Notes: generated from the sequence alone by a model not told the origin. Numbered from the stretch's first letter, positions 52,575-64,000 are shown. The stretch is 64,000 bases of DNA from Sulfuritalea sp. (GCA_023229545.1 JALNZB010000005.1:23281-87280); one strand, 5' to 3'. Program-made: numbers and translations.

Positions 52575-53219
52575 GTGAGCGGGAAGATCGAGAGCAAGGT
52601 CAAGAAAAACAAGACCACCAAGGCGTGGATCACCGAGCACGTCAATGATGCCTACGTGCAGCGCGCCAGAGTTGAGGGCTGGCGTTCCCGCGCTGCCTTC
52701 AAGCTGATTGAAATCGACGACAAGGACAAACTGCTGAAACCGGGCATGACCGTGGTCGATCTCGGTTCCGCGCCCGGCAGTTGGTCACAGGTCGCCGCGA
52801 AGCGCGTGGTGCCCGGCGGGCGGCTGATCGCGCTCGACCTGCTGCCGATGGAACCGGTGCATGGCGTCGAATTCATTCAGGGCGATTTCCGCGACGACGC
52901 AGTGTTGCAAACGCTGGCCGATGCCCTCGATGGCCGTCAGGTCGACCTTGTATTGTCGGACATGGCCCCCAACATGTCGGGTATTGGCATGGTCGATCAG
53001 GCGCGTGTGATGCTTCTGGCTGAACTGACACTGGAGTTTTGCGCCTTGCATCTGAAGCCCGGTGGCGACATGCTGACCAAGGTTTTTCAGGGCGATGGCT
53101 TCATGGAGTTGCGCCGTGCCCTGCAGCAACAGTTTCAGATCCTGCAAATGAGAAAGCCGGCGGCTTCACGCAATCGCAGCGCCGAGATTTACCTGCTGGC
53201 GCGGGGCAGGCGGGTGTAG
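52575..53219 (+). CDS. rlmE: 23S rRNA Um2552 methyltransferase
   Basis: [43 protein letters not shown]. Confidence 0.95.
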
Positions 53220-53308
53220 TGGTGGGCCGCTGCGGTTTGCGGCCTGTTGTAATCGGCACTAGAATGGGCTGATGTGTACTCCCGACTGAGGGAAAGAGAG
53301 GCTTCACC

Positions 53309-55192
53309 TTGAATAACATGTTTAAAAGTATGGCGATCTGGCTGGTGATCGGCATTGTCCTGATGACGGTTTTCAATCAGTTCAACACGCGCCAGACGGC
53401 GGCGGTTGGATCGCTGGAATACTCGCAGTTCCTTGAAGAGGTGAAGCAGGGCCGCGTCACCAAGGTGGTGATTCAGGGCCGCACCCTGGAAGCCACCACG
53501 ACCGACGGCAAGAAGATCACCACTTACGCGCCGCCGGACTTGTGGATGGTGTCTGATCTGTTGAAAAACAACGTCAAGGTCGTCGCCAAGCCCGAGGAAG
53601 AACAGTCTTTCCTGACCAGCATTTTCGTCTCGTGGTTTCCCATGCTGCTGTTGATCGGTGTCTGGGTGTTTTTCATGCGCCAGATGCAGGGCGGAGGCAA
53701 GGGCGGGGCGTTTTCCTTTGGCAAGAGCCGCGCCAGGATGATGGATGAATCCTCCAATGTCATCACCTTTGCCGATGTGGCCGGTTGCGACGAAGCCAAG
53801 GAGGAAGTCTACGAAATGGTCGACTTCCTGAAAGACCCGACCAAGTTCCAGAAACTCGGCGGGCGCATTCCGCGTGGCGTGCTGCTGGTTGGCTCGCCCG
53901 GTACCGGCAAGACCCTGCTGGCCAAGGCGATTGCGGGCGAGGCCAAGGTGCCTTTCTTCTCGATTTCCGGTTCCGACTTCGTTGAAATGTTCGTCGGTGT
54001 CGGTGCCGCGCGCGTGCGCGACATGTTTGACCAGGCCAAGAAGTCCGCACCGTGCATCATTTTCATCGACGAACTCGACGCCGTCGGTCGCCAGCGTGGC
54101 GCCGGCCTCGGCGGCGGTAACGACGAGCGCGAACAGACCCTGAACCAGATGCTGGTCGAGATGGACGGTTTCGAGCCATCGGTGGGCGTGATCGTGGTGG
54201 CCGCCACCAACCGGCCCGACGTGCTCGATCCGGCGCTGCTGCGCCCCGGTCGCTTCGACCGCCAGGTGGTGGTGCCGCTGCCGGACATTCGCGGTCGCGA
54301 ACAGATTCTCAAAGTGCATATGCGCAAGGTGCCGGTGGCGCCGGACATCGATGCGTCGATCCTGGCCCGTGGCTGTCCGGGGTTCTCCGGCGCCGATCTG
54401 GCCAACCTGGTCAATGAAGCCGCGCTGTTCGCCGCGCGCAGCAACAAGCGCCTGGTGGACATGGAAGACTTCGAGCGCGCCAAGGACAAGATCATGATGG
54501 GCGCCGAGCGCCGCTCCATGGTCATGCCCGAAGAGGAACGAAGGAACACCGCGTATCACGAGTCCGGTCATGCCGTGGTGGCCAAGTTGCTGCCCAAGAC
54601 CGATCCAGTGCATAAGGTGACGGTCATCCCGCGCGGTCGCGCGCTGGGCCTGACCATGCAACTGCCCGATCAGGAACGCTATAGCCAGGATCGTGAGCGT
54701 TTGCTCAGCACCATTACCGTCTTGTTCGGTGGCCGCATTGCGGAAGAACTGTTCATGGGGCAGATGACCACCGGCGCTTCGAATGATTTTCAGCGCGCCA
54801 CCGATCTTGCCCGGCGCATGGTGACGCAATGGGGCATGTCCGAGAGTCTGGGTACGATGGTGTACGGGGAAGAGGAAGGCGAGATTTTTCTCGGCCGTTC
54901 CGTCACCACCCACAAGAACGTTTCGGAGTCCACCATGCAGAAGGTGGATATGGAGATTCGCCGCATTCTCGACGAGCAGTACGCACGTGCCCGTAAACTG
55001 TTGGAGGACAACCGCGATAAGGTCGAGGCCATGGCGGCGGCATTGCTGGAGTTGGAAACCATTGACGCCGACCAGATCAACGACATCATGGCCGGCTTGC
55101 CACCGCGTCCGCCCAAGCCTTCCAGTGCGCCGCCAGTGCCTAGAGCCGACAGCACGCCGGATCCCGAGCCGACCGCGCCGGCACCGGCCTGA
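53309..55192 (+). CDS. ftsH: ATP-dependent zinc metalloprotease FtsH
   Basis: [32 protein letters not shown] zinc motif. Confidence 0.98.
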
Positions 55193-55210
55193 TTTCCGAT
55201 ACAGCTCAGA

Positions 55211-55244
55211 CGGGCCGCCGAAGACTTGCCGATTCGGCGGCCCG
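55211..55244 (+). terminator. Stem-loop between ftsH and folP
   Basis: CGGGCCGCCGAA...TTCGGCGGCCCG 12-bp stem, then GTCTTTT. Confidence 0.55.
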
Positions 55245-55252
55245 CGTCTTTT

Positions 55253-56083
55253 ATGACACAGAATTTCCTCTGCGGTCGCTTTGTCCTCGATGCCGGGCGT
55301 CCGCTCATCATGGGCATTGTTAACCTGTCCGACGATTCCTTTTCCGGCGATGGCCAGCACGGCAATATCGACGCCGCCATTGCCCTGGGCCGGCGGCTGA
55401 TCGAAGAGGGCGCGCACATTCTTGATCTTGGCGCCGAATCCTCGCGACCGGGGGCGACACCAGTGCCGGCACAACAGGAGATTGACCGCCTGCTGCCGGT
55501 GATCGAGGCCTTGCGCGATTGTGGCGCTCCGCTGTCGATCGATACCGTCAAGCCGGAAGTGATGCGCGTTGCGCTGGCGACCGGTATTGACATGATCAAC
55601 GACATCAATGCACTGCGCGCTCCGGGCGCCATGGAACTGGTTGCTGAAAGCCGTGCCGGGGTTTGCCTGATGCACATGCAGGGCGATCCAGGCACCATGC
55701 AGGACGATCCGCATTACGTTGACGTCGTCGTCGAGGTCGCCGAGTTTCTCGCCGAGCGCGTCGCGGCCGCCGAGGCGGCGGGTATTGCCTTGAATCGCAT
55801 CGCGGTCGATCCAGGTTTTGGCTTCGGCAAGACGCTGGAACACAACATCCAACTGTTGCGCCGACTCGGTGAACTGGTGGTGCCGGGCCTGCCCCTGCTG
55901 GTGGGGCTGTCGCGCAAGTCGATGCTGGGTCAGCTTACCGGACGAGATCCGTCCGAGCGGATTTATGGGGGAATCGCGGCGCATGTGCTGGCGGTCCTGC
56001 GCGGTGCGCGTATCGTGCGCGTGCATGATGTCGCCGCGACGCGCGACGCCCTTGCCGTATTGCAAACTGTGGAGGATTACTGA
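55253..56083 (+). CDS. folP: Dihydropteroate synthase
   Basis: IMGIVNLSDDSFSGDG, GAESSRPGA, SIDTVKP, DPGFGFGKT, GLSRKS. Confidence 0.95.
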   Translation: MTQNFLCGRFVLDAGRPLIMGIVNLSDDSFSGDGQHGNIDAAIALGRRLIEEGAHILDLGAESSRPGATPVPAQQEIDRLLPVIEALRDCGAPLSIDTVKPEVMRVALATGIDMINDINALRAPGAMELVAESRAGVCLMHMQGDPGTMQDDPHYVDVVVEVAEFLAERVAAAEAAGIALNRIAVDPGFGFGKTLEHNIQLLRRLGELVVPGLPLLVGLSRKSMLGQLTGRDPSERIYGGIAAHVLAVLRGARIVRVHDVAATRDALAVLQTVEDY

Positions 56084-57439
56084 ATGGGACGCAAGTATTT
56101 CGGCACCGACGGTATTCGCGGTCGCGTCGGGCGGACACCGATCACCCCGGATTTTGTCATGCGCCTGGGTTTTGCGGCGGGTTCCGCGTTGGTGGCGAAG
56201 GACGGGCTGCCGGCCAACGAGCGACCGGCGGTGCTGATCGGCAAGGACACCCGCATTTCCGGCTACATGCTGGAAGCTTCGCTGGAGGCGGGATTTTCCG
56301 CAGCCGGTGTCGATGTGATGCTGTGCGGGCCGATGCCGACTCCCGCCGTTGCCTACCTGACGCGCGCTTTGCGCTTGCAGGCGGGCGTGGTGATTTCCGC
56401 CTCGCACAATCCCTACGACGACAACGGCATCAAGTTTTTTTCGGCGCAGGGCACCAAGCTGGCCGATGCGGTGGAGCGAGAGATCGAAGCGCTGCTCGAT
56501 CAGCCGATGACCTGCATGGACTCGGTTAGGCTTGGCAAGGCGCGTCGCGTCGATGACGCCGCTGGTCGCTACATCGAATTCTGCAAGAGCACCTTTCCCA
56601 ATGACCTCGATTTGCGCGGCCTCAAGATCGTGGTGGACAGCGCTCATGGCGCGGCCTATCACGTCGCGCCCAGCGTTTTCCATGAACTCGGCGCCGAGAT
56701 AGTCGGCGTTGGCGACACGCCGAATGGACTCAACATCAACCACGAGGTCGGCGCCACCGCGCCCGAGGCGCTGCGTCGCGCCGTGCTCGACGCCCGCGCC
56801 GACTGCGGCATCGCGCTCGACGGCGACGGCGACCGGCTGATCATGGTCGATGCGGCAGGCGCCCTCTACGACGGCGATCAACTGCTCTACGTCATCGCCC
56901 GCCATCGCGCGCTCGGTCGGCCCCTGGCAGGCGTGGCCGGCACGCAAATGAGCAACCTCGGCTTCGAGCACGCGCTGGCGCGGCTTGGCATCGCTTGCGG
57001 TCGCGCCAGGGTGGGCGATCGTTATGTGCTGGAAATGATGCAGGAGAAGGGCTGGCTGCTGGGCGGCGAAAACTCCGGACACATTATCTGTCTCGACCGC
57101 CACACCACGGGTGACGGCATCATTGCCGCGTTGCAAGTGCTGGCGGCGCTGCGTGCGAGCAACGAAACCCTGAGTGAGGCCTGCGCCGACCTGACGCTGT
57201 ATCCGCAAAAGCTGATCAACGTGCGCATGCCCGCCGGATTCGACTGGGCCGCCGACGCCGGTATCCGCTCGGCGGTGAAAGCCGCCGAGGCGACGCTCGA
57301 CGGTGGCGGGCGCGTGCTATTGCGTCCCTCCGGCACCGAGCCGCTGCTGCGGGTGATGGTGGAGGGGCGCGAAGCCGTTCTCGTAACAGGGCAGGCCGAG
57401 GCCATCGCCGCAGCCGTGCGGCAGGCCTTCGGCGAGTAG
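56084..57439 (+). CDS. glmM: Phosphoglucosamine mutase
   Basis: [37 protein letters not shown]. Confidence 0.96.
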
Positions 57440-57506
57440 CGACGGCGCGGTTTTCGGAAAATAGTACGTTGTTTCTTTTCAGGAAAAATCTCAAAACTTA
57501 AATTTC

Positions 57507-57520
57507 TTGACTCATATCAA
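57507..57520. promoter_or_regulatory. FNR/DNR/NnrR-type binding site
   Basis: TTGAC-TCAT-ATCAA (consensus TTGAT-N4-ATCAA, 1 mismatch), about 120 nt upstream of the octaheme gene. Confidence 0.65.
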
Positions 57521-57640
57521 TTAAATATTTTCCACAGGTACCGATAATGGATATCGTACTGTAGCTTTCGATCAGAAATCTCATTGACTTAAGCAGGCAT
57601 GGCAGGCGTTGTCCAACCGAAACAATATCAGGGAGCCCAA

Positions 57641-59134
57641 ATGAAATCTCTAAGCAAGCTGGCGAAAGGATGGATGTTTATCCTTTCCGTGTTCGCCTTG
57701 ACTGCGGTCAATGCCGCCACAACGCCTCCGGCAAAGTCCAAGGCAGATGTCCAGATCGGACAAATGTGCGTGGAATGCCACACCAAGGAGAGTCCCGGCA
57801 TTGTCACCGACTGGAAAAAGAGCGCCCACGCCGGCAAGAAGGTAGATTGCTACGACTGCCACAAAGCCAAGGAGGGCGACAAGGGTGTTGTCAAGCACGA
57901 GAAGGACAAGGCCGGCAAGCCGCTGTTCATCTCGACCATCGTCTCGCCCAAGGCCTGCGCCACCTGCCATGAAAAGGAAGTAGCGCAGCAGCAACGCTCC
58001 CACCATGCCAAGGCCGGCCAGATTCTCGCGTCCCTCGACAACATCATGGGCGAAGTCATCGGCGGCCCCGCCGCAGTGAACGCCGGATGCCTGCAATGTC
58101 ACGGCGGCGCGGTCAAGATCGACCCCGTATCCGGCGAAGCGACCCCCGAAACCTGGCCCAACACCGGCATCGGTCGGTTGAATCCGGACGGCAGCCGCGG
58201 TTCCTGCTCGGCCTGTCACGCCCGGCATCGCTTCTCCGCTGCCCAGGCGCGCACGCCGGACACCTGCGGCAAATGCCACCTCGGCCCTGACCATCCGCAA
58301 ATGGAGGTCTATAACGAGTCCAAGCACGGCATCCTCTACCGGGCAAACGTCGGCGAAATGAAGCTGGACAAGAAGAAATGGGTTGCCGGCGTCGATTACT
58401 CGGCCGCTCCGACCTGCGCCACCTGCCACATGAGCGCCACCCGCACCCAGGGCGTCACCCATGATGTCGGCGAGCGGATTTCCTGGACGTTGCGTCCGCC
58501 GATTTCCACCAAGCTCAACATGGTGCGGCTGTCCAACGGCGACGAGTTCGACCAGCCGGAAGGCAAGCCCCTGCCCAAGGTGGGCGATGAGGTCAAGGGC
58601 GCCAAGGTGACCGAGATCCTGACCTGGGAAGACCGGCGCAAGAAGATGACCAACGTCTGCTACGCCTGCCACGGCTCCAACATCATCAGCGGCCACTACA
58701 AGCAGTTCGACGACGTGGTGAACCTCTACAACGAGAAGTTCGCCAAACCCATCGCCGCCTCCATGAAGGAACTGACGGCCAAGGGTTACATCACCGCCGC
58801 GCCGTTCGACGACAAGATCGAATGGACCTGGTGGGAAATCTGGCACCACGAAGGCCGTCGTGCCCGCCATGGCGCCTCCATGATGGGTCCGGACTACACC
58901 TGGTGGCATGGCATGTACGAAGTCGCGCAGCACACCTACTTCAAGTGGATTCCGGAAATGCGCGCCGCCGTACTCAAGAAGGACGGCAACGAAAAGGCCG
59001 CCGAAGAGATCCTGGCGAAGTATTTCAAGCCCATCGACGGTCATGACTGGTACTTCAACGGCATCAGCAAGGATGCGGTCGAGAAGGTTCGCAAGGGCTT
59101 CGAGGAGCGCTACGGCAAGGGCTCGCTGAAGTAA
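57641..59134 (+). CDS. Octaheme cytochrome c, hydroxylamine oxidoreductase (HAO) family, probably reductive epsilon-Hao type
   Basis: Sec-type signal peptide; 8 CxxCH (CVECH, CYDCH, CATCH, CLQCH, CSACH, CGKCH, CATCH, CYACH); CHLGPDHPQ.E.Y.ESKHG and GASMMGPDYTWWHG family motifs; GGAG RBS before ATG 57641. Confidence 0.85.
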   Translation: MKSLSKLAKGWMFILSVFALTAVNAATTPPAKSKADVQIGQMCVECHTKESPGIVTDWKKSAHAGKKVDCYDCHKAKEGDKGVVKHEKDKAGKPLFISTIVSPKACATCHEKEVAQQQRSHHAKAGQILASLDNIMGEVIGGPAAVNAGCLQCHGGAVKIDPVSGEATPETWPNTGIGRLNPDGSRGSCSACHARHRFSAAQARTPDTCGKCHLGPDHPQMEVYNESKHGILYRANVGEMKLDKKKWVAGVDYSAAPTCATCHMSATRTQGVTHDVGERISWTLRPPISTKLNMVRLSNGDEFDQPEGKPLPKVGDEVKGAKVTEILTWEDRRKKMTNVCYACHGSNIISGHYKQFDDVVNLYNEKFAKPIAASMKELTAKGYITAAPFDDKIEWTWWEIWHHEGRRARHGASMMGPDYTWWHGMYEVAQHTYFKWIPEMRAAVLKKDGNEKAAEEILAKYFKPIDGHDWYFNGISKDAVEKVRKGFEERYGKGSLK

Positions 59135-59145
59135 GGCGTCATCGC

Positions 59146-59174
59146 GAAGGCCCCCCGTGAAACCGGGGGCCTTC
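59146..59174 (+). other. Intercistronic GC-rich stem-loop without a U-tract
   Basis: GAAGGCCCCC...GGGGGCCTTC 10-bp stem right after the octaheme gene stop. Confidence 0.55.
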
Positions 59175-59199
59175 CGTTCCTACATTCAAGGAAATTCCC

Positions 59200-59664
59200 A
59201 TGGGTCTCAAGATCGGAATTGCTTCAATCGCCCTCGCGGCGGCATTGTTTGGACAGGGTGCCTGGGCGGTCGATGCCGCCAAGCCTGCCGATGCCACGCT
59301 TATCGCCCAAGGCAACAAGCACTGGGAGGAAGGCCGGCTGGAGGATGCGCGCAAGAGCTTCGAGAAAGCGGTGGCAGCCAATCCGGGTTCGAAAGAGGCT
59401 CACATGAAACTGGCCGGCCTGCTGCTTTCCAATCGCAACTATGCCGCAGCCATCAAAACCTATCAACGAACCATCAGCCTCGACGGGAAAAACGCCAAGG
59501 CATGGATCGGACTGGGCATGGCCTATCTTCATGACGGACAGTCCGAACTGTCCCGCGCGGCCTTTGAGGAAGCGGTTCGCGTCGATCCCAGCCGCAAGAC
59601 GCAGTTGGCCCAGTTGATGACAAAGCCGGCCAGGCAAGAAGCGCCTGCGCACGTCGGCAAATGA
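59200..59664 (+). CDS. Exported tetratricopeptide repeat protein
   Basis: Signal peptide ending AWA; about 3 TPR units (GNKHW..GRLEDARKSFEKAV..NP; AAAIKTYQRTISLD.KNAKAW.GLG.AY). Confidence 0.8.
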   Translation: MGLKIGIASIALAAALFGQGAWAVDAAKPADATLIAQGNKHWEEGRLEDARKSFEKAVAANPGSKEAHMKLAGLLLSNRNYAAAIKTYQRTISLDGKNAKAWIGLGMAYLHDGQSELSRAAFEEAVRVDPSRKTQLAQLMTKPARQEAPAHVGK

Positions 59665-59909
59665 ATATCTCCAGCGCCATTATCCATACGCGAGCCAGCG
59701 GCATGGAACATCTGCGCGGCCAGCTCGAAACCATTGCCGGAGTTGAAGTCCATGCGGCTTCGGCAGAGGGCCGGTTCATCGTCAGCATCGAAAGCGCGGG
59801 TGACCAGGACACTGCGGACACTTTCGAGACGATCCAGAGACTTGACGGTGTGATGTCGGCATCGCTCGTGTATTCCCATTTTGAATCAGATCCTGATCAG
59901 GAAGTTTGA
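59661..59909 (+). CDS. napD: NapA signal-peptide chaperone NapD
   Basis: MNISSAII...AGVEVHA...GRFIVSIE...I..LDGV.SASLVYSHFE; directly upstream of napA. Confidence 0.9.
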   Translation: MNISSAIIHTRASGMEHLRGQLETIAGVEVHAASAEGRFIVSIESAGDQDTADTFETIQRLDGVMSASLVYSHFESDPDQEV

Positions 59910-59956
59910 ATTAAGGCCAATCTGCGGGTAAGGCCGCAATCACAAGGAGTTCTGCA

Positions 59957-62479
59957 ATGAAACTGACACGGCGTGAATTCATCAAAGCCAATGCTGTTGT
60001 TGCTGCCGCCGGCGTGGCGGGAATGGCGGTACCCGGCGCACAAGCCATCGCGCAATCCAGCGCCAAGGACGGCGTGCGCTGGGACAAGGGCGTATGTCGA
60101 TACTGCGGCACGGGCTGCGGCGTGTTGGTCGGCGTCAAGGACGGTCGCGTCGTCGCCACCCAGGGCGATCCGGATGCACCGGTAAACAAGGGCCTCGCCT
60201 GCGTCAAGGGTTACTTTCTGGCGAAGATCATGTACGGCAAGGACCGTCTGACCCAGCCGCTGCTGCGCATGAAAGATGGCAAGTTCGCCAAGGATGGCGA
60301 GTTCAAGCCGGTGTCGTGGAACGAAGCCTTCGATGTCATGGCGGACAAATGCAAGGCGACGCTGAAGGCCAAGGGGCCGACCGCAGTCGGCATGTTCGGC
60401 TCGGGCCAATGGACCATCTGGGAAGGTTATGCCGCCGCCAAGTTGTTCAAGGCCGGCTTCCGCTCCAACAATCTGGACCCCAATGCCCGCCACTGCATGG
60501 CTTCCGCCGTGGTCGGCTTCATGCGCACCTTCGGCATCGACGAGCCGATGGGCTGCTACGACGACATGGAACATGCCGATGCCTTCGTGCTGTGGGGCTC
60601 GAACATGGCCGAGATGCACCCGATCCTGTGGTCGCGCATCACCGACCGCCGCCTCACCGGCAAGCATGTACGCATCAACGTGCTGTCCACCTTCAGTCAC
60701 CGCACCACCGAGATGGCGGACAGCGAACTGATTTTCAAGCCGCAGTCGGACCTAGCGATCCTGAATTACATCTGCAACCACATCATCCAGAGTGGCGCGG
60801 TGAATGAGGACTTCGTCAAGAAACATGTGAACTTCGCCAAGGGCGTCACCGACATCGGCTACGGCCTGCGTCCCAACCATCCGCTCGAACAGGCGGCCGG
60901 CAACAACGGCTACCCCGGCGCCGACGGCAAGCCCAAGGGCGACCCGATGAAGGCCGCGCCGATGAGCTTCGCCGATTTCAAGGCCTTCGTCGCCGAATAC
61001 ACGCTGGACAAGGCGCACGAGATTTCCGGCGTGCCGAAGGACAAGCTGGAGGCGCTGGCCAAGGCCTATGCCGACCCCAAGACCAAAGTCATGTCGCTGT
61101 GGACCATGGGTTTCAACCAGCACTCGCGCGGCACCTGGGTGAACAACATGATCTACAACGTCCACCTGCTGGTGGGCAAGATCTCCGAACCCGGCAACGG
61201 CCCGTTCTCGCTGACCGGCCAACCCTCGGCCTGCGGCACGGCGCGCGAGGTCGGCACTTTTGCCCACCGTCTGCCGGCCGACATGGTGGTGATGAATCCC
61301 AAGCACCGCGAGTTCGCCGAGAAACAATGGAAGCTGCCGGCCGGCACCATTCCCGACAAGCCCGGCTTCCATGCCGTGCTGCAAAGCCGCATGCTGAAGG
61401 ATGGCAAGCTCAACTTCTACTGGACCAGCACCACCAACAACATGCAGGCCGGGCCGAACATCAACGGCGAGACCTATCCCGGCTTCCGCAATCCGGCAAA
61501 CTTCATTGTCGTTTCCGACTGCTATCCGACGGTGACGGCGATGGCGGCCGACCTGATCCTGCCTTCGGCAATGTGGATGGAGAAGGAAGGCGCTTTCGGC
61601 AACGCCGAGCGGCGCACCCAGTTCTGGCGCCAGCAGGTCAAGGCGCCGGGCGAAGCCAGGTCCGACCTGTGGCAGTACGTCGAATTTTCCAAGCGCTTCA
61701 AGGTCGAGGACGTGTGGCCGGCCGAATTGCTGGCCAAGATGCCGGAGCACAAGGGCAAGACCTTGTACGACGTGCTCTATGCCAACGGCCAGATCAACAA
61801 GTTCCCGCTGAAGGACACCGCGCAGGGCTTCGACAACGACGAATCGAAGGGACTCGGCTACTACCTGCAAAAGGGTTTGTTCGAGGAATACGCCGCCTTC
61901 GGCCGCGGCCACGCGCATGACCTCGCGCCGTTCGACACTTACCACAAGGCGCGCGGCCTGCGCTGGCCGGTGGTGGAGGGCAAGGAGACCCTGTGGCGCT
62001 TCCGCGAAGGCTACGACCCCTATGTGAAGAAGGGCGAGGGCGTGCGCTTCTACGGCAAACCCGACGGCAAGGCGGTGATCTTCGCCCTGCCCTGGCAGCC
62101 TGCCGCCGAAATGCCTGACAAGGACTACGACCTCTGGCTATGCACCGGTCGCGTGCTGGAGCACTGGCATACCGGCAGCATGACGCGGCGCGTGCCCGAG
62201 CTTTACCGCGCCATGCCGGACGCCTGGATCTACATGCATCCCGAAGACGCCAAGAAGCGCGGTCTGGCGCGCGGCGACACGGTCAAGGTGGCCACGCGGC
62301 GCGGCGAAATCTCCACCCGCGTCGAAACCAGCGGTCGCAACAAACCGCCGCAGGGCCTGGTCTTCGTGCCTTTCTTCGACGAAATGCGCCTGGTCAACAA
62401 GCTCACCCTGGATGCCACCTGCCCGCTCTCGAAAGAGACCGACTTCAAGAAGTGCGCATGCAAGGTGGTGAAGGCCTGA
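59957..62479 (+). CDS. napA: Periplasmic nitrate reductase catalytic subunit
   Basis: Tat signal TRREFIK; CRYCGTGC [4Fe-4S]; [11 protein letters not shown]; ARHCMASAV; [14 protein letters not shown]; [12 protein letters not shown]. Confidence 0.97.
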
Positions 62480-62560
62480 GGCCGGCGTGACTGGAACGGC
62501 GAATATTTCCGCCATTACGTCGCGCTGCCTTGCCAGCCATGTCCAGCATTCCAACAGGGT

Positions 62561-63337
62561 ATGAACACTCCTTTCCGCCGCCAGTTCCTGGTCGATGCCG
62601 CTCGCATGGCATGCGGCGTCGGCCTGTTGGGATTGGGACTCGGGCTCTATGTCAAGCAGGCGAAAGCGCTGCCGCCGGTGGCGTTTCGCCCGCCGGGCGC
62701 CGGGGCGGAGCAGGATTTTCTTGGGGCCTGCATTCGCTGCGGCCTCTGCGTGCGCGATTGTCCACCGCAGATACTGGCGCTGGCGAAACCCGAGCAGGCT
62801 GTCGCCACCGGCACGCCCTATTTCATCGCCCGCAGCGGGGCTTGCGAGATGTGCGAAAACATCCCCTGCGTCAAGGCCTGCCCCACCGGCGCGCTCGATC
62901 ACAAGCTGACGGATATCGCCAAGGCGCGCATGGGTCTGGCCGTGCTGGTGGATCACGAGACCTGCCTCAATTTTCTCGGCATGCGCTGCGATGTCTGCTA
63001 TCGCGTCTGCCCGCTGCTCGACAAGGCGATCACCCTGGAACCGCGCCACAACGAGCGCACCGGCAAGCACACGATCTTCGAGCCCGTCGTGCATTCGGAG
63101 GCCTGCACCGGCTGCGGCAAGTGCGAGGCGGGTTGTGTGCTGCAAGTGGCGGCGATCAAGGTCTACCCGACGCAACTCGCGAAAGGGGAACTCGGCAGCC
63201 ATTACCGGCTCGGCTGGGTGGAAAAGAAGAAGGCCGGCGGCAGTCTCGTCGCGCCGGAAATCGAACACCGCTACAACCTGCCCGAGGGAGTTACGTACGA
63301 GCACGGCAAGGGCTTGTCGAGCGAGGCGCCGCGATGA
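62561..63337 (+). CDS. napG: Ferredoxin-type protein NapG
   Basis: RRQFL signal; FRPPGA; [12 protein letters not shown]; [12 protein letters not shown]; C..CY..CP; CTGCGKCE..C. Confidence 0.93.
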
Positions 63338-64000
63338 ATGCGAACTTGAGTACGAATTCGAGTACGAGTTTGAGTACCAACCGCATCGCGCACGCCGCCA
63401 TTGCCGCCAAGGGCAGGTGGAGCGCCCACAAGTGGCTGATCCTGCGCCGCGTCTCGCAGTTCGGAATCCTGGCGCTGTTCCTCGCCGGGCCGTGGTTCGG
63501 CCTCTGGATCGTCAAGGGCAACCTCAATTACAGCTACACGCTCGATCTGCTGCCGCTCACCGATCCCCATGTGCTGCTGCAAAGCCTGCTGGCCGGCCAC
63601 AGCCCGGAGAAAAACGCGCTGCTCGGCGCCGCCATCGTTGCAGCCTTTTACTTTCTCGTCGGCGGCCGGGTTTTCTGCGCCTGGGTATGCCCGCTCAATC
63701 CCGTCACCGATCTCGCAGCCTGGTTGCGCACTCGCCTGGGCATCAAGGGCGGCACCCATGTCTCACGCCATGCGCGGCTGTGGATTCTCGGCCTGACGCT
63801 GGTCCTGGCGCTGGCCACGGGCAGCATTGCCTGGGAACTTGTCAATCCCGTATCCATGCTCCACCGTGGCCTGTTCTTCGGCATCGGCCTGGCATGGACC
63901 GCGGTGCTGGCGGTATTCCTCTTCGATCTCGCGGTGATGAACCGTGGCTGGTGCGGCCATCTGTGTCCGGTCGGCGCCTTCTACAGCCTGCTCGGCCAGC
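63334..64000 (+). CDS. napH: Quinol dehydrogenase ferredoxin subunit NapH (runs off the right edge)
   Basis: Manual reading from ATG 63334: [20 protein letters not shown]...[34 protein letters not shown]. Confidence 0.92.

Follow-up and report, generated by a model that had tools for sequence, protein, structure and literature searches.

The 64,000-nucleotide stretch of Sulfuritalea sp. DNA analysed here (GCA_023229545.1 JALNZB010000005.1:23281-87280; the window), from a groundwater betaproteobacterium that probably belongs to the Rhodocyclales, ends in a cluster that encodes an octahaem c-type cytochrome (OCC), a small exported tetratricopeptide-repeat (TPR) protein and the NapD, NapA, NapG and NapH components of a periplasmic nitrate reductase system. 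The cytochrome belongs to a large, little-studied family and is not a one-off; its gene and the TPR gene form a conserved pair, and upstream of the family's genes FNR-type boxes are strongly enriched. The best reading of these data is that the OCC acts reductively on nitrite, hydroxylamine or NO and is induced under anaerobic conditions. The complete explanation, in which an FNR-induced OCC-TPR-nap operon would provide a reductive OCC acting on nitrite, NH2OH or NO, has in our judgement slightly better than an even chance of being correct.

The OCC contains exactly eight CxxCH motifs, which begin at residues 43, 70, 106, 150, 189, 209, 259 and 340, and no CxxCK; the 16 cysteines of these motifs are all the cysteines of the protein. 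The signal peptide spans residues 1-25 and the C-terminus is hydrophilic (…ERYGKGSLK). The protein matches the HAO-type multihaem family PF13447 of Pfam at 75.4 bits against a gathering cut-off of 21.9. In sequence searches of the PDB the top match was the cytochrome IhOCC (4QO5), with an E-value of 4e-45 for the single sequence and 1.7e-62 for a profile of 29 family sequences, followed by anammox HOX, Nitrosomonas HAO, HAOr Kustc0458 and HDH at about 1e-20 to 1e-23, the first eight matches all being members of the HAO clade. The same ranking was obtained when an AlphaFold model of moderate quality (pLDDT 70.9 overall, below 50 around Tyr419) was searched with Foldseek: 4QO5 was again best (E 8e-17, TM 0.56), and ranks 1-11 were all HAO-clade proteins (E 8e-17 to 3e-9). 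Eight CxxCH motifs in order together with PF13447, the similarity of sequence and fold, and an Asp-His pair place the protein in the HAO superfamily. Named neighbours of the protein include an 'HAO' of Brocadiaceae/Planctomycetota (50% identity) and proteins of Ca. Marithrix (53%) and Desulfobacterales (46%).

The Asp-His pair lies after the sixth haem motif, where CGKCHLGPDHPQ aligns with CHSGVDH of NeHAO and CHMGIDH of KsHOX, and corresponds to the catalytic pair of those enzymes. The residues, Asp217-His218 (codons at 58289-58294), are part of a GPDH motif that is invariant in 29 close relatives; among 65 full-length representatives of the superfamily, Asp217 was found in 45 and His218 in 41. 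A C-terminal motif, GRRARHGASMMGPDYTWWHG, is likewise invariant in the close family and includes Met414 (codon 58880-58882) and Trp422 (codon 58904-58906). According to the passage of PMC8940962 that cites Haase 2017, reductive epsilon-Hao proteins have a Trp in place of the cross-linking Tyr and a Met eight residues before it. The OCC reproduces this arrangement, as that passage gives it, in GASMMGPDYTWWHG, with Met414 and, eight residues on, Trp422. Across the 65 representatives Met was found in 55 and Trp in 42, and Tyr occupied the Trp422 column once. The published Met/Trp signature was used because the C-terminal loop of the OCC does not align to NeHAO: HMMER could not align the C-terminal Tyr loop to Nitrosomonas HAO or HOX with the single sequence, the family profile or the isolated C-terminal third, and the loop aligned with IhOCC only, plus a weak segment of HAOr. 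The Tyr-less assignment rests on that signature together with IhOCC, HAOr and BOGUAY_0691, a Beggiatoaceae protein considered below.

Taken together, these features identify the OCC as a putative Tyr-less member of the HAO superfamily with a reductive-type signature. Three other assignments were considered and rejected. Tyr419 as the cross-linker was set aside because BOGUAY_0691 and IhOCC have Trp instead and the residue is not kept as Tyr beyond the close family; since its column holds Trp or Phe in other superfamily members (13 of the 65 representatives), Tyr419 would be a structural aromatic rather than a cross-linker. Identity as an oxidative HAO or HDH disagrees with the Trp in the Tyr column and with a score of 80 bits against the HDH equivalog of NCBIfam, whose cut-off is 900. 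Identity as NrfA or ONR was dismissed on the absence of CxxCK, on 18 bits against the NrfA equivalog (cut-off 595) and on insignificant Foldseek matches to TaNiR (8RV0, E 3.1) and NrfA (1GU6, E 8). An earlier reading of this DNA, made without database searches (the original prediction), had counted eight CxxCH motifs and no CxxCK, placed by hand alignment a Met at the His position and a Trp at the Tyr position, seen no hydrophobic C-terminal tail and separated the protein from NrfA and ONR; all four points were recovered here, the hand alignment as Met414 and Trp422. It had also named the Tyr of PDY, were it to fall at the cross-link position, as a possible refutation, and the substitutions just described speak against that placement.

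The six genes occupy the final 6.5 kb of the window on the plus strand, 3' of a housekeeping run ftsH-folP-glmM (Table 1). From OCC to napH the successive intergenic distances are 65, -4, 47, 81 and -4 nt, the two negative values reflecting an ATGA shared by the TPR stop and the napD start and another shared by the napG stop and the napH start. Because the TPR stop and napD start overlap in this way and no space is left for a promoter, the OCC-TPR pair is almost certainly co-transcribed with nap. A scan for sigma-70 promoters and terminators found sites no more often than in shuffled sequence and no convincing terminator between the genes. Chance adjacency of nap to the OCC-TPR pair was rejected on account of the ATGA overlap together with the recurrence of the association in at least four different gene orders. 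Scores exceeded the curated Pfam and NCBIfam cut-offs for all six genes, except that NapD reached only 43 bits with its NCBIfam equivalog (cut-off 113); the NapA, NapG and NapH equivalogs above cut-off (NapH from a partial gene), with NapD present, define a NapGH-type Nap system. The open reading frame (ORF) of the OCC as listed opens at an upstream ATG at 57599. Homologues are 496-500 aa long and cover 97% of this ORF, and an AGGGAG Shine-Dalgarno sequence precedes a second ATG at 57641; for these two reasons the true start is probably 57641, which would give a 497-aa precursor with the Sec-type signal peptide MKSLSKLAKGWMFILSVFALTAVNA.

Table 1 Features of the OCC-TPR-nap cluster, in window coordinates.
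Feature	Position	Strand	Remarks
FNR/Crp-family box TTGACTCATATCAA	57507..57520	+	one mismatch to TTGAT-N4-ATCAA; 134 nt upstream of ATG 57641
OCC (octahaem c-type cytochrome gene)	57641..59134	+	497 aa, HAO superfamily, predicted Tyr-less reductive type
TPR gene	59200..59664	+	exported, 154 aa, about three TPR units; matches TPR_16, TPR_2 and other TPR families
napD (NapA chaperone)	59661..59909	+	PF03927, 85 bits (cut-off 28)
napA (periplasmic nitrate reductase catalytic subunit)	59957..62479	+	NF010055, 1584 bits (cut-off 904); Tat signal
napG (periplasmic poly-ferredoxin)	62561..63337	+	NF007012, 361 bits (cut-off 269); Tat-type N-terminus
napH (membrane quinol dehydrogenase subunit)	63334..64000	+	NF007013, 309 bits (cut-off 234); first 222 codons, gene cut by the window end

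The cluster was also recovered independently of the genome assembly. Sampled words of the window were best matched in groundwater metagenomes, the top run containing 88% of them, and a 2710-nt contig from that run covers 57764 to beyond 60400 with zero mismatches, crossing the OCC/TPR, TPR/napD and napD/napA junctions. The TPR/napD overlap is spanned without mismatch by a contig of a second study as well (runs X1 and X2 both span the junction). The OCC-TPR-napD-napA cluster is therefore real and not a product of assembly. An exact look-up of the OCC protein in public assemblies returned no record. As a separate observation, a second contig of run X2 tracks the window as far as 59638, close to where the TPR gene ends, and continues in unlike sequence; since another contig of that run spans the TPR/napD overlap exactly, two forms of the junction may coexist in the sample.

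A box of FNR type stands upstream of the OCC gene in the window, and the same element recurs throughout the family. With up to one mismatch allowed, TTGAT-N4-ATCAA occurs within 350 nt 5' of the OCC gene in 45 of 84 loci, where shuffled sequence gives 0.46, and its density is 2.27 per kb upstream of the OCC gene compared with 0.054 per kb elsewhere in the same loci, an enrichment of 42-fold. Crp/FNR-family regulator genes adjoin the OCC gene in 18 loci, and genes of NarL type and of NarX/NarQ type do so in about 8 to 10 loci each. On account of the box enrichment and the adjacent Crp/FNR regulators, FNR-family control is predicted for the family in two classes of Proteobacteria, whether nap is nearby or not, and such control fits an anaerobic, partly nitrate/nitrite-responsive function. 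The original prediction had listed a secreted protein with eight CxxCH motifs, an exported TPR protein and napD-napA-napG-napH on one strand with short gaps behind an FNR-type box, and every particular of that list proved accurate; its proposal that the Hao is co-expressed with Nap is supported by the ATGA overlap without promoter space, and the box it saw turns out to be a family-wide feature.

Two further promoter observations may be recorded here. In Chromatiaceae (for example L049, L052, L056 and L081) two FNR-type boxes, such as TTGACAAAGATCAA and TTGACTTGTATCAA, often lie 38 bp apart and about 210-255 nt 5' of the OCC gene, a spacing that is kept across Thiocapsa species. In the window, an imperfect palindrome at 57538-57562 (GTACCGATAATGGATATCGTAC), downstream of the FNR box and ahead of the start codon, loosely resembles paired NarL/NarP heptamers with non-canonical spacing. 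This palindrome had no counterpart in the fetched loci, and the promoter region of the window had no homologue among 87 fetched loci.

The wider distribution of the family was surveyed with one genome scanned per species. This gave 292 genomes with an OCC relative, from which 80 loci were fetched; neighbourhoods were counted over 81 loci, 42 of which have at least 6 kb on both sides. Hosts include Rhodocyclaceae, Comamonadaceae (Rhodoferax, Polaromonas), Gallionellaceae, Thiobacillaceae, Chromatiaceae (Thiocapsa, Halochromatium), Sedimenticolaceae and others, and the protein database holds more than 8000 clusters of close OCC relatives. By these numbers of species-level genomes and clusters the unit is not rare in Betaproteobacteria, where the original prediction took such a unit to be not well described. 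A TPR gene lies directly 3' of the OCC gene in 70 of the 81 loci, and a contig end cuts six of the remaining 11; in L085 the TPR gene overlaps the OCC gene, and five Rhodoferax-type loci are without it. No other neighbour was broadly conserved across the OCC loci. Literature searches for the OCC family in Betaproteobacteria found nothing relevant, and in the literature searched we found no description of the TPR partner, the family-wide FNR control, the breadth across Beta- and Gammaproteobacteria or the fusion to a napDAGH operon.

The TPR protein has a signal-peptide-like N-terminus (…GQGAWA/VD) and no cofactor motifs, and on the latter ground it is probably a dedicated maturation or docking factor for the OCC. 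It scores 31.9 bits with the CcmH/CycH TPR domain PF23914 (cut-off 42) and 19 bits with the NrfG model NF007692 (cut-off 306), both outscored by generic TPR models, and so falls outside the CcmI/NrfG-type chaperones as these models define them. A CcmI/NrfG-like apocytochrome chaperone is therefore a possibility by analogy only. The partner would not be essential for the fold of the OCC, because it is absent beside the Beggiatoa and Planctomycetota homologues and in the five Rhodoferax-type loci.

Linkage to nap was seen in at least four arrangements, with a recurrent, apparently NapC-less napDAGHB set. In Rhodocyclaceae (L002, L003, L009) nap is downstream of the OCC gene; in Comamonadaceae (L032, L041, L043, L054) the order is napDAGHB-crp-OCC-TPR; L021 has a divergent nap upstream of the OCC gene, and in L076 nap lies 5 kb downstream. 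Because the arrangements differ, the association does not reflect descent alone: it is recurrent, yet a minority arrangement. The direct TPR/napD fusion of the window was found in none of the other fetched loci.

Genes resembling fccAB, which encode a flavocytochrome c (a dihaem cytochrome c and an FAD sulfide dehydrogenase), are found no further than about 2.5 kb from the OCC gene in 10 loci (L049, L052, L053, L056, L057, L065, L067, L077, L013 and L040, among them Thiocapsa, Halochromatium, a Gallionellaceae metagenome-assembled genome (MAG) and Parasulfuritortus), which hints at a link to sulfide oxidation. These neighbours in sulfur oxidisers, the abundance of the family in sulfur- and iron-oxidising lineages and the action of the octahaem cytochromes MccA and OTR on sulfur compounds (PMC9250108) could be taken to mean that the OCC acts on sulfite, polysulfide or tetrathionate, or serves as a periplasmic electron hub, nap being incidental. 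We consider this very improbable: the Asp-His pair and the fold belong to the HAO/IhOCC clade and not to MccA/OTR, the nap linkage recurs in at least four gene orders, NarXL sensors are adjacent, and BOGUAY_0691 works on nitrogen compounds (PMC6449678).

The neighbourhoods of OCC homologues contain several candidate sources of electrons. Between TPR and napD, the three closest relatives (L001-L003, with 85-88% protein identity) have a gene for a 659-aa protein. This protein combines a signal peptide and eight CxxCH motifs with a membrane domain of cytochrome b561 type at its C-terminus, an architecture resembling that of the Geobacter quinol oxidoreductase CbcL. The octahaem-c/cytochrome-b561 fusion is also present in L012, and L002 has a monohaem cytochrome c in addition. 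At the DNA level the window and L003 run collinear on either flank of this gene, about 120 nt (59611-59730) standing in place of 2.5 kb (L003 5496-8003); because of this collinearity around the gap, the window lineage either lost the fusion gene or never acquired it. In Planctomycetota/Brocadiaceae MAGs (L082 3090-7479) the 50%-identical homologue bears the annotation 'hydroxylamine oxidoreductase' and closes a set of four genes without a TPR gene, the first three coding for a small multihaem cytochrome, an Fe-S protein like NrfC and a membrane protein like NrfD. As differing quinol-dehydrogenase modules adjoin the homologues, the OCC is most simply viewed as a quinol-fed periplasmic reductase. 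NapGH is the sole quinol-dehydrogenase module in the window, and in the collinear relatives L003 and L009 napH is followed by napB and a monohaem cytochrome c. No sign of NapC was seen in the nap-bearing relatives, for which no NapC query was made. Since a dedicated c/b quinol dehydrogenase is missing from the window, NapGH (or NapB) is the likely donor to the OCC, by analogy with the Nap-TaNiR module described below. The original prediction, too, had offered NapGH as a possible feeder of the Hao; this is conjecture, and what the closest relatives encode is the dedicated fusion.

Two of the loci carry labels that seem to disagree with their content. The cytochrome genes of L003 (labelled as an Ignavibacteria MAG) and L051 (labelled Thermoanaerobaculales) are 85% and 71% identical to that of the window, and L003 aligns collinearly with loci of Rhodocyclaceae, the DNA identity being about 80%; both look like mis-binned betaproteobacterial contigs.

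The nearest biochemical anchor was reached through the Ca. Marithrix cluster representative mentioned above, which led to the orange octahaem cytochrome of Guaymas Beggiatoaceae. The sequence of this protein, BOGUAY_0691 of Guaymas Ca. Maribeggiatoa, was recovered by scanning metagenome contigs with its published forward primer; the resulting 511-aa ORF starts MIRKLWA and ends RYGEQTDR, and both primers and the published length fit. It is 45% identical to the OCC over its full length (E 1e-153) and shares the eight CxxCH motifs, CGKCH-GPDHPQ and GRRARHGASMMGPD-x-T-x-WHG, with the Met and Trp kept, and, as predicted for the OCC, it is soluble and periplasmic. Unlike the window gene, it has no TPR gene after it, is not fused to a nap operon and comes from a marine gammaproteobacterial host. 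In vitro, the purified native protein reduces nitrite and oxidises hydroxylamine and hydrazine, and napA and napB lie upstream of its gene (Buckley 2019, PMC6449678). By analogy, this anchor would support nitrogen-oxide chemistry for the OCC and not a clean ammonifying respiratory role.

Related activities are on record for other HAO-family cytochromes. The epsilon-Hao proteins of Campylobacterota are, as far as the signature passage cited above describes them, Tyr-less octahaem HAO-family cytochromes like the OCC, with the same Trp and Met; Tyr-less epsilon-HAOs reduce nitrite and hydroxylamine and hardly oxidise hydroxylamine (PMC8042395). In Caldithrix abyssi, which is without nrfA, the epsilon-Hao gene is directly beside a NapGH-containing nap cluster (PMC5317091). 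No TPR partner is reported for epsilon-Hao, and the donors proposed there are NapC/cM552-type cytochromes, NapM and Rieske/cytochrome b complexes. IhOCC of Ignicoccus hospitalis, described as an octahaem nitrite reductase without P460 (PMC9250108), lacks the P460 cross-link as the OCC is predicted to do, and is its closest solved relative by sequence and fold. It differs from the OCC in being archaeal and only about 24% identical, in having Asp-Val (CHLDPDV) where the OCC (CHLGPDH) and HAO have Asp-His, and in having Phe where the OCC has Trp at the signature position. Nap beside a Tyr-less HAO-type cytochrome thus already has precedents, in Caldithrix (PMC5317091), in the orange Beggiatoa (PMC6449678) and in Campylobacterota.

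A parallel from another multihaem clade is the Nap-TaNiR module of Trichlorobacter ammonificans and Desulfurivibrio, which combines a NapC-less NapGH-type Nap with an octahaem nitrite reductase in hosts lacking NrfA (PMC12142623). Unlike the OCC, TaNiR is of ONR type with a CxxCK active-site haem, in keeping with the Foldseek result for 8RV0 given above. In that system NapGH was reportedly proposed, by Sorokin in 2023, to feed both Nap and TaNiR. Finally, Nitrosomonas HAO (1FGJ/4FAS), Kuenenia 4N4J and 6HIF, and HAOr Kustc0458 (6H5L) share with the OCC the superfamily, the eight-haem core and the Asp-His pair after the sixth haem motif; they differ in their distance (E about 1e-20, 18-23% identity) and in the C-terminal Tyr loop that could not be aligned.

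These comparisons suggest the following mechanism. A single anaerobically induced operon would run from an FNR-type promoter through OCC, TPR, napD, napA, napG and napH and probably on to napB past the window end. The OCC would be a soluble periplasmic enzyme without a Tyr-haem cross-link, with the Asp-His pair placed over a five-coordinate haem, and with the small secreted TPR protein as its dedicated partner. It would draw electrons from the quinol pool, entering in the window genome through NapGH and possibly via NapB, and reduce the nitrite that NapA forms, hydroxylamine or NO, or more than one of these; ammonium would be the most likely product, as epsilon-Hao and IhOCC suggest by analogy. 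In this scheme we infer the in vivo substrate and product, the catalytic direction, the donor and the role of the TPR protein.

Several observations weigh against this mechanism. The first concerns Nap: nap genes were found in the fetched flanks of only about 10 of the 81 loci, and, among the 42 with 6 kb or more on each side, in only 2. What is conserved is the OCC-TPR pair, which mostly stands alone, and its position at the head of a nap cluster is a lineage-specific arrangement; because most OCC-TPR loci are without nap nearby, the core job of the family would need no Nap. The original prediction of a Hao heading a nap cluster thus describes the window correctly and does not extend to the family, and its picture of a reductive Hao working with Nap agrees with the signature and the operon geometry while overstating both rarity and the centrality of Nap. 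Second, Tyr419, only three residues before Trp422, does not vary within the close family and falls in the part of the model with pLDDT below 50, so that sequence by itself leaves a cross-link possible. Third, the window encodes no dedicated electron donor for the OCC, and the sole basis of NapGH as donor is the analogy with the Nap-TaNiR proposal, made for an ONR-type enzyme. Fourth, public RNA was uninformative: four metatranscriptome runs yielded short contigs only, 88-95% alike and from other, related organisms, mostly of napA and none across the junctions. Fifth, four public runs whose contigs carry both sides of the interval 57397-57601 at up to 100% identity show zero depth within it; the interval takes in the last part of glmM and the whole intergenic stretch that bears the FNR box. 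In three runs, contigs with near-identical copies of the cytochrome gene part from the window exactly at 57610, reflecting either strain-level variation upstream or a contig joined at that point; the promoter of this OCC copy is without independent confirmation, and the gene cluster is unaffected. The biochemistry of relatives supplies the remaining points, since recombinant BOGUAY_0691 is weak on nitrite, the native protein also oxidises hydroxylamine and hydrazine, the homologue of Ca. Thioglobus autotrophicus gave no support for growth on nitrite (all PMC6449678), and the Tyr-less HAO Kustc0458 forms NO and not ammonium (PMC8042395). On this biochemistry, the ammonium of the original prediction is a candidate product only.

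The last of these points leads to a different product. As Kustc0458, which is among the structural matches of the OCC, reduces nitrite to NO (PMC8042395), the OCC might be an NO-forming nitrite reductase of the same kind, supplying Nor/Nos and replacing NirS/NirK in Nap-based denitrification. The hosts in Rhodocyclaceae, Comamonadaceae and Thiobacillaceae are typical denitrifiers, the Crp/FNR regulators adjacent in 18 loci would suit such a role, and nirS and nirK were not found in the 64-kb window, a weak point given its size. Set against this, the nearest relatives (BOGUAY_0691, IhOCC and the bearers of the epsilon-Hao signature) are tied to ammonium or mixed activities, the dihaem partner of HAOr, Kustc0457, has no counterpart beside the OCC gene, and identity to 6H5L is only about 19%. 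We regard an NO-forming enzyme as improbable.

Many of the same observations could also be accommodated by a general anaerobic stress module, in which the OCC-TPR pair would remove nitrite, hydroxylamine or NO, by reduction or oxidation, without conserving energy, its adjacency to nap then reflecting shared FNR control and Nap-derived nitrite. The pair stands isolated among unrelated genes in most genomes, including those of phototrophic sulfur bacteria such as Thiocapsa, the window has no dedicated quinol dehydrogenase, and Ignicoccus hospitalis, the source of IhOCC, has no known nitrogen respiration. The multifunctional BOGUAY_0691 and a Thioglobus homologue without nitrite respiration (PMC6449678) are likewise what detoxification would lead one to expect. 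However, membrane quinol-dehydrogenase modules adjoin the homologues in several lineages, as would suit a terminal reductase linked to quinol, the Nap to which the operon is fused is a respiratory one of the NapGH type, and NarXL-type regulators are adjacent in several loci. Detoxification without energy conservation is on this evidence unlikely, while deserving serious consideration; if the OCC merely detoxifies, the finding is an ordinary one.

A respiratory, reductive OCC would have wider consequences. Nitrite is the branch point at which nitrogen is either kept as ammonium or lost as gas, and predictions from genomes use nrfA, onr, nirS and nirK. Global surveys of ammonifiers screen for nrfA and onr alone, HAO and IhOCC counting there as off-target (PMC10716430), for which reason any ammonifying capacity of the OCC family would go uncounted. 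In its broadest form, the idea is that FNR-controlled OCC-TPR is a widespread route from nitrite to ammonium (or NO), overlooked by marker-gene surveys in Beta- and Gammaproteobacteria taken for denitrifiers or for sulfur and iron oxidisers, and that the pair would use whichever quinol dehydrogenase is at hand (NapGH in the window, a CbcL-like fusion in sister genomes or an NrfBCD-like module in Planctomycetota), with the TPR protein as a new type of assembly or docking factor; we put this forward tentatively, as a possibility that is more doubtful than probable. If the family does reduce nitrite in vivo, the capacity is being missed in many Beta- and Gammaproteobacteria of groundwater, sediment and wastewater. 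The operon fusion, the enrichment of FNR boxes and the variable quinol-dehydrogenase neighbours all provide testable hypotheses, for which cultured carriers exist in Parasulfuritortus cantonensis, Thiocapsa roseopersicina, T. marina and Halochromatium salexigens, and the TPR partner offers a new handle on the maturation or docking of HAO-type enzymes.

Elsewhere in the window, scans against Rfam and for tRNAs gave no matches, and positions 1-57439 contain no second multihaem ORF. A 1339-aa ORF on the minus strand (53189-57208), antisense to ftsH, folP and glmM, was rejected as a high-GC artefact and not a gene. The genes in 1-57439 are of housekeeping type and include those for arginine, branched-chain amino acid and pyrimidine biosynthesis and for ribosomal proteins, together with dxs/ispA, carAB, greA and ftsH.

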